From: Escherichia coli | Lineage (GTDB): Bacteria > Pseudomonadota > Gammaproteobacteria > Enterobacterales > Enterobacteriaceae | Direction: 5' to 3' (one strand) | NCBI RefSeq assembly: GCF_003334335.1 | Contig: NZ_QOWQ01000035.1 | Length of the DNA: 47,404 nucleotides | In this document: positions 20,141 through 25,556 of the stretch, piece after piece | Layout of the letters: each line of letters begins with the position of its first letter | Numbering within the stretch: position 1 is the first letter of the stretch | Program-made: the position numbers and the translations under genes | The notes under the pieces: model-generated | What the model saw: only the letters and a program-made list of their open reading frames with translations | Database searches by the model: none | What the model was told of the DNA's origin: nothing

Positions 20141-20227
20141 GTAGGTCGGATAAGACGCCCCGGCGTCGCATCCGACAATGTGCAGGCGTTGATGCCGGAT
20201 GCGGTGCAAGCACCTTATCCGGCCTAC
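20141..20227. repeat. REP pair (BIME) between phnD and phnE
   Basis: gtaggtcggataagacg...cgcatccgaca and gatgccggatgcgg...ccttatccggcctac palindromes. Confidence 0.85.
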
Positions 20228-20242
20228 AGACCGGAGCCAAAC

Positions 20243-21030
20243 ATGCAAACCATCACCATCGCCCCACCCAAGCGCAGCTGGTTCTCGCTTCTGAGCTGGG
20301 CCGTTGTACTCGCCGTGTTGGTCGTCTCGTGGCAGGGCGCGGAAATGGCCCCGCTTACGCTGATCAAAGACGGCGGCAACATGGCGACGTTCGCCGCCGA
20401 CTTCTTCCCGCCCGATTTCAGCCAGTGGCAGGATTACCTCACCGAAATGGCCGTCACGCTGCAAATCGCCGTCTGGGGCACCGCGCTGGCGGTGGTTCTC
20501 TCCATCCCCTTTGGCCTGATGAGCGCCGAAAACCTGGTGCCGTGGTGGGTTTACCAGCCCGTTCGCCGCCTGATGGACGCCTGCCGCGCCATTAACGAAA
20601 TGGTCTTCGCCATGCTGTTCGTGGTCGCCGTCGGCCTCGGCCCGTTCGCTGGCGTGCTGGCGTGCTGGCGCTGTTTATCCACACCACCGGCGTGCTCTCC
20701 AAGCTGCTTTCCGAAGCGGTGGAAGCGATTGAACCCGGCCCGGTGGAAGGCATTCGCGCCACCGGTGCCAACAAGCTCGAAGAGATCCTCTACGGCGTGC
20801 TGCCACAGGTGATGCCACTGCTGATCTCCTACTCCCTCTATCGCTTCGAATCCAACGTCCGCTCGGCGACCGTCGTCGGCATGGTCGGCGCAGGCGGGAT
20901 CGGCGTCACCCTGTGGGAAGCGATTCGCGGTTTCCAGTTCCAACAAACCTGCGCCCTGATGGTGCTTATCATCGTCACGGTCAGCCTGCTGGATTTCCTC
21001 TCTCAACGGTTGCGTAAGCACTTTATCTGA
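20243..21030 (+). pseudogene. phnE: phosphonate ABC transporter permease phnE, disrupted by frameshift within a tandem 8-bp repeat
   Basis: Permease reading frame is split between two overlapping ORFs (frame change near 20648-20671, where gctggcgt occurs twice then gctggcgc); known cryptic K-12 allele. Confidence 0.88.
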
Positions 21031-21050
21031 TAAGCGAGGCATTGATATCT

Positions 21051-21776
21051 ATGCACTTGTCTACACATCCGACCAGCTACCCAACACGCTATCAAGAGAT
21101 AGCCGCAAAACTTGAGCAGGAGCTTCGTCAACACTACCGCTGCGGCGACTATCTTCCCGCCGAGCAGCAACTGGCAGCGCGCTTTGAGGTGAATCGCCAC
21201 ACCCTGCGCCGCGCCATCGACCAACTGGTGGAAAAAGGCTGGGTACAGCGCCGTCAGGGCGTCGGCGTGCTGGTGCTGATGCGCCCGTTCGATTACCCGC
21301 TCAACGCCCAGGCGCGTTTTAGCCAGAATCTGCTGGATCAGGGCAGCCATCCCACCAGCGAAAAACTGCTTTCGGTATTGCGCCCCGCGTCCGGCCACGT
21401 CGCTGACGCACTGGGGATTACCGAGGGGGAGAACGTCATCCACCTGCGCACCCTGCGTCGTGTCAACGGCGTCGCGCTCTGTTTAATCGACCACTACTTC
21501 GCGGACCTCACCCTCTGGCCGACGCTGCAACGCTTCGACAGCGGCTCGCTGCACGATTTTCTGCGCGAGCAAACCGGAATTGCGCTGCGCCGCAGCCAGA
21601 CGCGGATCAGCGCCCGCCGCGCCCAGGCCAAAGAGTGCCAGCGTCTTGAAATCCCGAATATGTCGCCGCTGCTGTGCGTGCGCACCCTTAACCACCGTGA
21701 CGGTGAAAGCAGCCCGGCGGAGTACTCCGTCAGCCTGACGCGCGCCGACATGATTGAATTCACTATGGAGCACTGA
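21051..21776 (+). CDS. phnF: GntR-family repressor of the phn operon
   Basis: 241-aa ORF from MHLSTHPTSYPTRYQEIA; N-terminal GntR HTH, UTRA-like C-terminus. Confidence 0.93.
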   Translation: MHLSTHPTSYPTRYQEIAAKLEQELRQHYRCGDYLPAEQQLAARFEVNRHTLRRAIDQLVEKGWVQRRQGVGVLVLMRPFDYPLNAQARFSQNLLDQGSHPTSEKLLSVLRPASGHVADALGITEGENVIHLRTLRRVNGVALCLIDHYFADLTLWPTLQRFDSGSLHDFLREQTGIALRRSQTRISARRAQAKECQRLEIPNMSPLLCVRTLNHRDGESSPAEYSVSLTRADMIEFTMEH

Positions 21777-22810: not shown

Positions 22811-23874
22811 TGTACGTTGCCGTGAAAGGGGGCGAGAAGGCGATCGACGCCGCCCACGCCCTGCAAGAGAGCCGACGCCGAGGCGATACCGATTTGCCCG
22901 AACTGAGCGTCGCCCAGATTGAACAGCAGCTTAACCTCGCGGTAGATCGCGTGATGACCGAAGGCGGCATTGCCGACCGCGAACTGGCGGCGCTGGCGCT
23001 GAAACAGGCCAGCGGCGATAACGTTGAAGCGATTTTCCTGCTGCGCGCCTACCGCACCACGTTGGCGAAGCTGGCGGTAAGCGAGCCGCTCGACACCACC
23101 GGGATGCGTCTCGAACGCCGTATCTCCGCCGTTTATAAAGACATTCCCGGCGGCCAGCTGCTTGGCCCAACCTACGACTACACCCATCGCCTGCTCGATT
23201 TTACCCTGCTGGCAAACGGCGAAGCGCCGACGCTGACCACCGCCGACAGCGAACAGCAGCCGTCGCCGCACGTTTTCAGCCTGCTGGCGCGTCAGGGGCT
23301 GGCGAAGTTTGAAGAGGATAGCGGCGCACAGCCGGATGACATCACCCGCACGCCGCCGGTTTACCCCTGCTCACGCTCCTCCCGTTTGCAGCAGTTGATG
23401 CGCGGCGACGAAGGCTATTTGCTGGCGCTGGCCTACTCCACCCAACGCGGTTACGGGCGCAATCACCCGTTCGCAGGCGAGATCCGCAGCGGCTATATCG
23501 ACGTGTCGATTGTGCCGGAAGAGCTGGGATTTGCGGTGAACGTCGGCGAACTGCTGATGACTGAGTGTGAAATGGTTAACGGTTTTATCGACCCGCCGGG
23601 TGAGCCGCCGCACTTCACGCGCGGCTACGGGCTGGTGTTCGGCATGAGCGAGCGCAAAGCGATGGCGATGGCGCTGGTCGACCGCGCTCTGCAAGCCCCG
23701 GAGTACGGCGAGCACGCGACAGGCCCGGCGCAGGATGAAGAGTTCGTGCTGGCACATGCCGACAACGTCGAAGCCGCAGGCTTTGTCTCACACCTCAAAC
23801 TCCCCCACTACGTCGATTTCCAGGCCGAACTGGAGCTACTCAAACGTCTGCAACAGGAGCAGAACCATGGCTAA
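22810..23874 (+). CDS. phnI: C-P lyase subunit PhnI (ribosyl-triphosphate forming nucleosidase)
   Basis: 354-aa ORF from [16 protein letters not shown]; ORF-track upstream extension rejected. Confidence 0.93.
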   Translation: MYVAVKGGEKAIDAAHALQESRRRGDTDLPELSVAQIEQQLNLAVDRVMTEGGIADRELAALALKQASGDNVEAIFLLRAYRTTLAKLAVSEPLDTTGMRLERRISAVYKDIPGGQLLGPTYDYTHRLLDFTLLANGEAPTLTTADSEQQPSPHVFSLLARQGLAKFEEDSGAQPDDITRTPPVYPCSRSSRLQQLMRGDEGYLLALAYSTQRGYGRNHPFAGEIRSGYIDVSIVPEELGFAVNVGELLMTECEMVNGFIDPPGEPPHFTRGYGLVFGMSERKAMAMALVDRALQAPEYGEHATGPAQDEEFVLAHADNVEAAGFVSHLKLPHYVDFQAELELLKRLQQEQNHG

Positions 23875-24712
23875 TCTGAGCGGCTACAACTTTGCCTACC
23901 TCGACGAGCAGACCAAACGCATGATCCGCCGCGCCATCTTAAAAGCGGTGGCGATCCCCGGTTATCAGGTGCCGTTTGGCGGGCGCGAGATGCCGATGCC
24001 GTACGGCTGGGGAACCGGCGGCATTCAGCTTACCGCCAGCGTGATTGGCGAAAGCGACGTGCTGAAGGTGATTGACCAGGGCGCGGATGACACCACCAAC
24101 GCCGTGTCGATTCGCAACTTCTTCAAGCGCGTGACCGGGGTAAACACCACGGAACGTACGGACGATGCGACGGTTATCCAGACGCGTCACCGCATCCCCG
24201 AAACGCCGCTGACCGAAGATCAGATAATTATCTTCCAGGTGCCAATCCCCGAGCCGCTGCGCTTTATCGAGCCGCGCGAAACGGAAACCCGCACCATGCA
24301 CGCGCTGGAAGAGTACGGCGTGATGCAGGTGAAACTGTATGAAGATATCGCCCGCTTCGGTCATATCGCCACCACCTACGCCTATCCGGTGAAGGTAAAT
24401 GGGCGCTACGTGATGGACCCGTCGCCGATCCCGAAATTCGATAACCCAAAAATGGACATGATGCCCGCCCTGCAACTGTTCGGCGCGGGGCGCGAGAAGC
24501 GCATCTATGCGGTGCCGCCGTTTACCCGCGTGGAAAGTCTCGATTTCGACGATCACCCGTTCACCGTTCAGCAGTGGGATGAGCCATGCGCCATCTGCGG
24601 ATCGACCCACAGCTATCTTGATGAAGTGGTGCTGGATGACGCCGGAAACCGCATGTTTGTCTGCTCCGATACCGATTATTGCCGCCAACAGAGCGAGGCA
24701 AAAAACCAATGA
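23867..24712 (+). CDS. phnJ: C-P lyase PhnJ (radical SAM-type, four-Cys cluster)
   Basis: 281-aa ORF from MANLSGYNFAYLDEQTKRMIRRA; C-terminal CxxCxxxxxC...C motif. Confidence 0.93.
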   Translation: MANLSGYNFAYLDEQTKRMIRRAILKAVAIPGYQVPFGGREMPMPYGWGTGGIQLTASVIGESDVLKVIDQGADDTTNAVSIRNFFKRVTGVNTTERTDDATVIQTRHRIPETPLTEDQIIIFQVPIPEPLRFIEPRETETRTMHALEEYGVMQVKLYEDIARFGHIATTYAYPVKVNGRYVMDPSPIPKFDNPKMDMMPALQLFGAGREKRIYAVPPFTRVESLDFDDHPFTVQQWDEPCAICGSTHSYLDEVVLDDAGNRMFVCSDTDYCRQQSEAKNQ

Positions 24713-25467
24713 ATCAACCGTTACTTTCGGTCAATAACCTGACCCACCTTTACGCGCCGGGCAAAGGCTTTAGCGATGTCTCTTTTGATTTATGGCCGGG
24801 GGAAGTGCTGGGCATTGTCGGGGAATCCGGCTCCGGGAAGACCACGCTGCTGAAGTCGATCTCCGCGCGCCTGACGCCGCAGCAGGGGGAAATTCACTAC
24901 GAGAACCGTTCGCTGTATGCAATGAGCGAGGCCGACCGCCGTCGCCTGCTGCGTACCGAATGGGGCGTGGTGCATCAGCATCCACTCGACGGCCTGCGCC
25001 GCCAGGTGTCGGCGGGCGGCAATATCGGCGAGCGGCTGATGGCGACCGGGGCACGTCATTACGGCGATATTCGTGCCACCGCGCAGAAGTGGCTGGAAGA
25101 GGTGGAGATTCCCGCCAACCGGATCGACGACCTGCCGACCACCTTTTCCGGCGGTATGCAGCAGCGTTTGCAGATTGCCCGCAACCTGGTGACGCATCCG
25201 AAGCTGGTGTTTATGGATGAACCGACCGGCGGGCTGGATGTGTCGGTGCAGGCCCGCCTGCTCGACCTGCTGCGCGGCCTGGTGGTGGAGCTGAACCTCG
25301 CGGTGGTGATTGTCACCCATGATTTAGGCGTCGCCCGCCTGCTGGCGGACCGTTTGCTGGTGATGAAGCAGGGGCAAGTGGTGGAGAGTGGGTTAACCGA
25401 CCGCGTGCTCGACGACCCGCATCATCCGTATACACAGCTGCTGGTGTCATCGGTTTTGCAGAATTGA
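24709..25467 (+). CDS. phnK: C-P lyase accessory ABC-type ATPase PhnK
   Basis: 252-aa ORF from [11 protein letters not shown]; Walker [10 protein letters not shown]. Confidence 0.93.
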
Positions 25468-25472
25468 GCCGG

Positions 25473-25556
25473 TGCCGGATGCGGCGTAAACGCCTTATCC
25501 GGCCTACAAATGCGCTCCCCGTAGGTCGGATAAGACGCGTCAGCGTCGCATCCGAC
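25473..25556. repeat. REP pair (BIME) between phnK and phnL
   Basis: gccggatgcggcgtaaacgccttatccggcctac and gtaggtcggataagacgcg...cgcatccgaca. Confidence 0.85.

Follow-up and report, generated by a model that had tools for sequence, protein, structure and literature searches.

The phn operon and its two REP pairs

The phn operon lies on the + strand of the K-12 window (the whole 47,404-nt stretch of Escherichia coli DNA analyzed here, from contig NZ_QOWQ01000035.1), where its 14 genes extend over about 11 kb. By RefSeq coordinates, the gaps between successive genes measure 24 nt at C-D, 105 nt at D-E (based on the PGAP phnE start at 20243), 20 nt at E-F, 0 at F-G, -4 at G-H, -1 at H-I, -8 at I-J, -4 at J-K, 110 nt at K-L, -4 at L-M, -1 at M-N, -14 at N-O and 1 nt at O-P. 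Only D-E and K-L are long, and each of them contains a pair of REP elements. The first-pass annotation had presented these pairs as filling two of the few intergenic gaps of the operon. The two gaps are indeed the sole long ones, but the argument is circular: they are long because the REP pairs lie inside them, and once the pairs (87 and 85 nt) are subtracted, about 18 nt remain at D-E and about 25 nt at K-L, resembling C-D and E-F. Under Pi starvation a single transcript spans b4092-b4106 (PMC3734233), so the pairs at both sites are transcribed within the 14-gene phn mRNA.

The placement of REP pairs at the phnD-phnE and phnK-phnL junctions (hereafter sites 1 and 2) was confirmed by pattern matches, by alignment to the Rfam family naRNA4 (a Y+Z2 unit) and by folding of the sense strand. 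The REP pattern used (CGGATGCG..CTTATCCGNCCTAC) gave eight strict matches in the window, compared with none in 100 shuffles, and its matches at the junctions lie at 20141-20174 (-), 20196-20227 (+), 25476-25507 (+) and 25521-25554 (-). The elements at both sites are imperfect palindromes of 30-40 nt with an internal stem mismatch, their arms of 14-15 nt being 86-87% complementary and forming a stem with an internal loop. REPs are defined by a conserved GTAG/CTAC tetranucleotide at the palindrome's foot (PMC3333891); here it is present as GTAGG at 20141 and 25521 and as CCTAC at 20223-20227 and 25503-25507, and the sequence recurs in many extragenic copies, with a median of 27 matches per E. 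coli genome for a site-2 query. Both pairs lie in the interval that separates one gene's stop codon from the start codon of the following gene.

At site 1, the phnD stop codon (TAA, 20135..20137 on the + strand, mapped to the window from RefSeq coordinates and seen in the sequence) is followed 3 nt later by a Z2-type REP at 20141..20177 (+), with its GTAGG foot at 20141 and its stem at 20145-20176; its assignment draws on the pattern, inverted repeat I1, a hairpin of -20.0 kcal/mol (z = -4.3) and the Z2 half of naRNA4. A head-to-head linker at 20178..20192 (+), whose sequence aligns loosely to the naRNA4 linker, leads into a Y-type REP at 20193..20227 (+), which lies in iREP orientation, ends in CCTAC and is identified by the pattern, inverted repeat I3, a hairpin of -19.8 kcal/mol (z = -4.9) and the naRNA4 Y half. 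The RBS of phnE (GGAG) and its ATG at 20243, the start used by PGAP in other strains, occupy 20232..20245 (+). At site 2, the phnK stop codon (TGA, 25465..25467, +, from RefSeq coordinates and sequence) precedes a Y-type REP at 25473..25507 (+), whose stem (25474-25503) starts 6 nt past the stop and ends in the CCTAC foot; the evidence here is the pattern, inverted repeat I3, a hairpin of -21.3 kcal/mol (z = -4.7) and a naRNA4 Y-half match of 42.7 bits. After a tail-to-tail linker at 25508..25520 (+), recognized from the sequence, comes a Z2-type REP at 25521..25557 (+), with its foot at 25521 and its stem at 25525-25556 (pattern; inverted repeat I4; hairpin of -21.3 kcal/mol, z = -4.9), and then the phnL RBS (GAGG) and ATG at 25578 (25567..25580, +; sequence and RefSeq coordinates). 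The span originally annotated, 20141 to 25556, reaches from the outer edge of the first REP to that of the last.

Each site is composed of one Y-type and one Z2-type REP in inverted orientation, as in BIME-2 elements. Site 1 scores 69 bits against naRNA4, above the gathering score; site 2, with the opposite, tail-to-tail arrangement, reaches just 36-43 bits, its Y and Z2 halves being recognized separately. Unlike BIME-2 elements built from several tandem copies, with their S linkers and s/l/r flanking motifs, each site holds a single pair. BIME-1, which joins Z1 to Y through a long L linker with an IHF site, was rejected: linkers of 15 and 13 nt are too short, and the non-Y units are of the Z2 type. 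The neighboring REP325 (yjdM-yjdN, 17389-17668 in the window, adjoining phn) is likewise built of Y+Z2 units, matching Rfam naRNA4, and separates tandem genes, but it is an array of 12 hairpins, whereas the phn sites have two each. The phn REP pairs are a known class of element behaving as expected, and the finding is real but ordinary. The REPs in phn were presumably described when the operon was first sequenced, and in EcoCyc; among the open papers searched, none names REPs together with phnK and phnL.

In the sense RNA, single REPs in phn fold at about -20 kcal/mol each, and the pairs at -50.5 kcal/mol (z = -4.3) at site 1 and -60.7 kcal/mol (z = -6.6) at site 2, with the hairpins beginning 3-8 nt past the phnD and phnK stop codons. 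A scan of 17600-29400 detected no intrinsic (Rho-independent) terminator, that is, a GC-rich hairpin followed by a U tract, at either junction, and the hairpin tails (AATGTGCA / AGACCGGA and AAATGCGC / CCCGAACC) are devoid of a U tract. Internal promoters at the REP sites were considered and rejected, none being found. Occlusion of the phnE or phnL RBS by the repeats was also rejected, with a predicted accessibility of 0.5-0.8, above that in short-gap species; the mean P(unpaired) is 0.66 for the phnE RBS, which is predicted to be mostly unpaired, and 0.68 for that of phnL.

Occupancy of the two junctions in relatives and within E. coli

Judged by plain MFE thresholds, the phnD-phnE spacer folds at or below -15 kcal/mol in 38 of 40 related loci, with a median gap of 90.5 nt and with the first paired base 0-17 nt past the phnD stop across the 40 loci. 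The same threshold is reached in 1/49 loci at C-D, 7/40 at E-F and 16/71 at K-L. The occupants of the phnD-phnE position differ, and include E. coli-type REPs, BoxC, Pseudomonas REPs and unique stems in Vibrio and Pseudomonas. In E. coli, the only Escherichia species returned by the genome scan, this position is polymorphic, with about 72% REP and about 25% BoxC alleles; these counts represent BLAST coverage classes, not per-genome inspection, and about 180 genomes fall outside both classes, for example that of AR_0077 with its inverted BoxC allele. The alleles comprise the REP pair, a REP pair with a truncated Z2, double BoxC, single BoxC in either orientation and degenerate BoxC. All those examined keep a hairpin, ranging from -18 to -73 kcal/mol, and no hairpin-free allele was found among about 70 sampled E. 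coli rows.

BoxC (also PIT or TMECO), with the sequence CCCTCNCCC...GGGNGAGGG, is a family of no known function and unrelated to REPs. It forms strong hairpins and fills exactly the stop-to-RBS interval that the REPs use, at phnD-phnE in about 25% of E. coli genomes and at phnK-phnL in about 10%. It is also found at phn junctions in Kluyvera, Leclercia, Enterobacter and Buttiauxella; in the K-12 window it occurs only after phnP. The idea that the site-1 linker is a remnant of an ancestral spacer, based on the ATGTGC that it has in common with the BoxC allele, was rejected, as the motif is BoxC's own (compare 29139-29215).

At phnK-phnL, most relatives have a gap of 7-40 nt without structure, and in Leclercia the motif GAGGCGAA..ATG, as at the phnL RBS, stands right after the phnK stop in a 9-nt junction with no insertion. 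REP insertions at this junction are lineage-specific, being gained and lost even inside genera, and BoxC takes the place of REP in about 10% of E. coli genomes. Going by these sequences, the gap was ancestrally short and without structure, and the pair looks like a dispensable insertion. Within Enterobacteriaceae, inserts of more than 50 nt were found at K-L in 9 of 18 loci, at E-F in two, at O-P in two and at N-O in one, with none at C-D. The phnK-phnL gaps of relatives bear no sign of selection for a step between phnG-K and phnL-P. From this comparison, phnD-phnE looks conserved as a position, whereas phnK-phnL does not.

Predicted effects on the phn mRNA

Intercistronic REP hairpins are established as shields for the mRNA upstream of them, malE-malF being the classic case; among the ABC-transporter operons of E. 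coli, the gene stabilized through 3' structures is invariably the substrate-binding one (PMC5927463). The phnD-phnE site has the structural features of a stabilizer of the malE-malF type, namely a stable sense hairpin just 3' of a gene needed in excess, and the REPs lie directly after an ABC binding-protein gene and before a permease gene, within one transcript. At malE-malF, 3' exonucleases are stopped at the structure, and message for the binding protein builds up (PMC5927463); the likeness of phn to it is one of sequence and folding. In contrast to malE, phnD is the second gene of its operon and not the first, and phn runs on for 12 more genes with non-transport functions.

The REP units, where they lie, how their RNA folds and how they are distributed among relatives and in the E. 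coli population were determined directly, and from these findings we infer the effects on RNA and protein discussed here. The best explanation overall, to which we give a probability of about 0.55, is that the phnD-phnE hairpins raise phnCD mRNA over phnE-P mRNA and that the phnK-phnL pair is a lineage-specific insertion. The phnD-phnE pair would occupy a hairpin position conserved just 3' of the substrate-binding-protein gene; when the downstream mRNA is cut, its hairpins would stop 3'-to-5' exonucleases, and they would probably add some attenuation of transcription. Through the exonuclease block and attenuation together, the phnC-phnD message would come to exceed that of phnE-phnP, which would be the usual arrangement in ABC-transporter operons, as these need an excess of binding protein. 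The phnK-phnL pair would have inserted 3' of the phnK stop and 5' of the phnL RBS, at a junction that can tolerate inserted DNA because the genes there do not overlap; it may give a similar, smaller step, and would abolish any stop-start coupling.

The first-pass annotation had proposed that the REP hairpins favor the upstream mRNA at both sites. The proposal has partial support: for phnCD it fits the hairpin in 38/40 loci and the published phnC and phnD data, but for phnG-K the unstructured gap of most relatives counts against it. In M9-P medium, only phnC (log2 -3.2) and phnD (-2.05) were significantly PhoB-dependent when a delta-phoB strain was compared with wild type; phnE to phnH carry no adjusted p-value in that dataset, which we read as low counts. 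Coverage under Pi starvation is described in PMC3734233 as falling along the operon, and low-expression sub-transcripts phnGHIJK and phnLMNOP were assembled. Indirectly, through the missing adjusted p-values and the coverage as described, these RNA-seq data agree with a drop after phnD, and the K-12 phnE frameshift could itself give downstream polarity.

Protection from exonucleases need not be the whole mechanism, as partial Rho-dependent attenuation would also lower the downstream genes. According to a recent preprint (bioRxiv 10.64898/2026.03.23.713779), REP325 both stabilizes the upstream yjdM mRNA and acts as a partial Rho-dependent terminator, with no Rho dependence detectable for fragments of two to four hairpins. 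The same text gives a median log2 upstream/downstream ratio of 0.96 for REP-containing tandem gene pairs versus -0.09 for controls, and reports that terminal REPs are not linked genome-wide to longer half-lives, their effects being context-dependent. Because REPs can attenuate transcription and stop-proximal REPs can lower upstream translation, neither the direction nor the size of the predicted REP effect is fixed.

Both pairs could instead be neutral selfish or hitch-hiking DNA in harmless stop-to-RBS spots, with no meaningful effect on phn expression. Enterobacteriaceae carry inserts of more than 50 nt at every kind of non-overlapping junction but C-D, the occupants turn over fast, both sites are polymorphic in E. 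coli, BoxC/PIT had neither promoter nor terminator activity in earlier work (PMC4666352), and REP effects vary strongly across the genome (bioRxiv 10.64898/2026.03.23.713779). We nevertheless consider neutrality at both sites unlikely, given that the phnD-phnE hairpin is near-universal, including Vibrio and Pseudomonas stems that are not obviously repeat copies, that the equally permissive C-D gap almost never has one and that hairpin-free phnD-phnE alleles are absent from the E. coli rows sampled. A mainly translational effect would run the other way: hairpins close to a stop codon would stall terminating ribosomes, leading to mRNA cleavage and tmRNA action, and PhnD and PhnK would be reduced. 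REPs at most 15 nt from a stop are reported to stall ribosomes and reduce the upstream protein, as at nrdA-nrdB (Liang, Rudd and Deutscher 2015, as represented in PMC12306157), and both phn pairs fall within this distance of the upstream stop: pairing sets in 3-7 nt past the stop at site 1, and 0-6 nt past it at site 2. An effect of the nrdA-nrdB type on PhnD and PhnK would be opposite to the one first proposed for these sites. However, the spacing is forced by geometry, since inserts must fit between the stop and the next RBS, and a loss of PhnD is hard to square with near-stop phnD hairpins conserved across genera when the binding protein is normally needed in excess; we regard this explanation as quite improbable.

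At the DNA level, the pairs might serve as BIME-2-like gyrase sites that ease the supercoiling of a strongly induced 11-kb operon. They have the Y+Z2 composition, inverted units and short linkers of BIME-2 gyrase elements such as sucC-sucB, and gyrase cleavage sites are over-represented in BIME-2, with Y units preferred (PMC6379681). Only a subset of BIME-2 is cleaved, though, typically multi-copy tandem arrays, whereas the phn sites are single pairs; moreover, the occurrence of BoxC and unrelated hairpins in the same position elsewhere argues for RNA structure over a sequence-specific protein site, leaving a gyrase role with very little probability.

Implications for phn and for intra-operon repeats

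Beyond a probable rise in phnCD mRNA, the phnD-phnE slot may be a selected hairpin position that is refilled by whichever palindromic repeat family is active in the host, be it REP, BoxC, Pseudomonas REPs or a private stem. Taken jointly with an RNA role for BoxC and the tuning of stoichiometry, this remains a tentative suggestion. If true, REP and BoxC alleles would be interchangeable mRNA-end modules, BoxC would gain a role at the RNA level, and E. coli lineages would differ in phosphonate-operon stoichiometry, tuned by the REP or BoxC allele that each naturally carries at the two junctions.

In summary, the finding carries little weight beyond the phn locus; it adds one more likely case of a binding-protein gene guarded by a 3' hairpin. 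It also advises caution against assigning a function to every intra-operon REP, as the position looks conserved at one phn site and not at the other. Finally, since REP, BoxC and insertion-free junctions coexist in one operon context, phn offers a natural experiment in which their comparison could measure the effects of repeats on mRNA ends, read-through and translation.

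REP pairs and the layout of the phn operon

Four REP units lie in the phn operon, on the plus strand of the window, exactly where the first-pass annotation placed one pair at phnD-phnE (site 1) and another at phnK-phnL (site 2), as pattern, palindromes, the Rfam model naRNA4 and folding all indicate. The units occupy 20141-20174 (minus) and 20196-20227 (plus) at site 1, and 25476-25507 (plus) and 25521-25554 (minus) at site 2. The REP pattern matched eight times in the window versus none in 100 shuffles, and the 14-nt REP tail 16 times (up to two mismatches) versus 0.76 expected. 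All four units are imperfect palindromes and carry the GTAG/CTAC foot by which E. coli REPs are defined (PMC3333891). Site 1, a Z2 and a Y unit head to head, aligns over its full length with naRNA4 (69 bits), a model of the Y+Z2 unit whose source is REP325; site 2, a Y and a Z2 unit tail to tail, scores lower (36-43 bits) because its arrangement differs. Both junctions lie in 391-nt stretches 100% identical to E. coli K-12 MG1655 and W3110 (window position = 4343473 minus NC_000913.3 position). Their positions make it almost certain that the pairs belong to the 355 annotated K-12 REP elements (PMC4550694), and the numbering suggests REP323 and REP324. Elsewhere in the window, REP325 itself (17389-17668, between yjdM and yjdN) has three naRNA4 matches, and an array near the window end (47039-47278) has two plus extra REP tails. 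Rfam also matched SECIS_2 (44519-44573, plus) and the sRNA STnc630 (11561-11726, minus), both unrelated to the REP pairs.

Site 1 separates the phnD stop codon (20135-20137, plus) from the phnE start used by PGAP in other strains (20243, plus), and site 2 the phnK stop codon (25465-25467, plus) from the phnL start (25578, plus). Junction lengths from C-D to O-P are 24, 105 (D-E), 20, 0, -4, -1, -8, -4, 110 (K-L), -4, -1, -14 and 1 nt. That REPs occupy the few gaps of the operon is thus a circular argument, since the D-E and K-L gaps are long because the pairs are inside them; without these they would measure about 18 and 25 nt.

In NC_000913.3 the phnE1 pseudogene begins at an ATG within the Y-type REP, giving an N-terminal extension (window 20192-20242), while other strains start at the ATG equivalent to 20243; this K-12 start is probably an artefact, because strains with BoxC alleles lack the extension. 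Within phnE (20243-21030), the 8-bp unit GCTGGCGT stands in 2.9 tandem copies (20648-20670) and the frame is broken into ORFs 20243-20812 and 20662-21030, which is the cryptic K-12 allele, whose 8-bp insertion is prone to slippage. In this strain the part of phnE left untranslated could impose additional Rho-dependent polarity on phnF-P.

As sense RNA, single REPs are predicted to fold at about -20 kcal/mol each, and each pair can form one long hairpin (-50.5 kcal/mol, z = -4.3 at site 1; -60.7 kcal/mol, z = -6.6 at site 2). A scan of both junctions found neither a U tract nor a promoter-like site, and the phnE and phnL ribosome-binding sites are predicted to be mostly unpaired (mean unpaired probability 0.66 and 0.68). 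A published RNA-seq study records, in a supplementary table, an antisense transcript of 481 nt (U00096.2 4315582..4316062; minus strand, about 25433-25913) that spans the phnK-phnL pair and the beginning of phnL. The minus strand also has a weak promoter-like site at 26053-26024.

The two junctions across species

Scanning one genome per species with PhnI yielded 80 loci, drawn from Enterobacteriaceae, Yersiniaceae, Erwiniaceae, Vibrio, Pseudomonas and others; phn genes were placed in them by tblastn and every junction was measured. The phnD-phnE spacer is 48-212 nt long in 39 of 40 loci and predicted to fold at -15 kcal/mol or below in 38, with the first paired base 0-17 nt past the phnD stop. 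That threshold is reached by one of 49 spacers at C-D, likewise non-overlapping, and by 7/40 at E-F. E. coli-type REPs fill the phnD-phnE spacer in Enterobacter, Citrobacter, Lelliottia, Cedecea and Buttiauxella agrestis, and BoxC fills it in Kluyvera, Leclercia, E. asburiae and Buttiauxella A111. Several pseudomonads have a Pseudomonas REP there; other pseudomonads, like Vibrio, Photobacterium and Shimwellia, have a private stem. The position of the hairpin thus appears conserved while its occupant turns over.

At phnK-phnL the median spacer is 27 nt, and strong structure occurs in only 16 of 71 loci, as one to four REPs in varying arrangement; it is both present and absent within Enterobacter and within Buttiauxella. 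Leclercia, Shimwellia, Serratia, Vibrio and several Enterobacter and Buttiauxella loci have an unstructured spacer of 7-16 nt. The Leclercia junction has the sequence TAA-GAGGCGAACATG, and the same GAGGCGAA..ATG motif is retained in E. coli, with the insert between stop codon and motif. Among Enterobacteriaceae loci L008-L026 of the comparison, inserts above 50 nt also occur at phnE-phnF (Cedecea, Enterobacter R1), phnO-phnP (Citrobacter R56, RIT691) and phnN-phnO (Buttiauxella agrestis), and none at phnC-phnD.

Exchange of REP and BoxC within E. coli

The phnD-phnE junction carries a REP-type allele in 3,877 of 5,396 E. coli genomes and an unrelated palindromic repeat in 1,339 others; at phnK-phnL the corresponding counts are 4,842 and 546. 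In alignments the alternative repeat at both junctions fits the BoxC/PIT/TMECO consensus CCCTCNCCC-N3-6-GGGNGAGGG-N3-GGGNGAGGG (PMC4666352), and the exchanged segment runs exactly from stop codon to ribosome-binding site. Six structural alleles were seen at phnD-phnE (REP pair, REP pair with truncated Z2, double BoxC, single BoxC in either orientation and degenerate BoxC), with predicted folding energies between -18 and -73 kcal/mol. Haplotypes (D-E/K-L) are REP/REP in K-12, BoxC/REP in strain 1500 and BoxC/BoxC in ACN002. In E. coli AR_0077 (locus L090; spacer 138-201) the single BoxC hairpin is reversed relative to the latter two strains, which suggests inversion, or resolution via the palindromic double-BoxC allele of strain 700481. 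The same family that replaces the REP pairs in other strains also lies at the operon 3' end (29139-29260), directly after the phnP stop (29129), as copy GGGAGAGGGTTAGGGTGAGGGG (29153-29174, minus) and a second, partial copy near 29225-29255.

Likely consequences for expression

REPs are among the best-catalogued K-12 elements, and the function proposed for the phn pairs, exonuclease protection raising the upstream segments, is the textbook one. In E. coli ABC-transporter operons the stabilised segment is invariably the binding-protein gene, guarded by 3' structure, malE-malF being the founding case (PMC5927463). A preprint (bioRxiv 10.64898/2026.03.23.713779) reports that at REP325 yjdM is stabilised and transcription partly terminated before yjdN, that the median log2 upstream/downstream ratio of tandem gene pairs is 0.96 with REP versus -0.09 in controls, that effects depend on context, and that terminal REPs make no general difference in half-life. 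REPs that lie no more than 15 nt from a stop codon reportedly stall ribosomes and reduce output of the upstream protein (Liang et al. 2015, as summarised in PMC12306157); both phn pairs belong to this class, and stalling would push PhnD and PhnK down rather than up. A subset of BIME-2 elements is also cleaved by gyrase (PMC6379681).

In Pi-starved K-12 a single transcript spans phnC to phnP, and therefore the REPs are transcribed; at low expression, phnGHIJK and phnLMNOP sub-transcripts were assembled, both breaking at the K-L junction (PMC3734233). That study describes coverage along the operon as varying and falling. In an independent M9-P data set, only phnC (log2 -3.2) and phnD (-2.05) differ significantly between delta-phoB and wild type, and phnE to phnH lack an adjusted p-value (PMC7657598 supplement), which we read as counts too low for testing. 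These data are consistent, indirectly, with a drop after phnD, to which the K-12 phnE frameshift could contribute.

Site 1 is most likely the local version of a conserved hairpin after the binding-protein gene, which would shield the phnCD 3' end and probably also attenuate read-through. Protection is thus a reasonable proposal for phnCD, where the hairpin position is conserved, but is unsupported for phnG-K; as a mechanism it is incomplete, since attenuation and stop-proximal stalling also have to be considered. Site 2 is best taken as an insertion that its junction tolerates, which would uncouple phnL initiation from phnK termination and may impose a mild expression step; nothing in the compared sequences indicates selection for its REP pair. 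What is modestly new is the REP/BoxC polymorphism inside E. coli at both phn junctions, and a phnD-phnE hairpin position that appears to outlast repeated replacement of its occupant.
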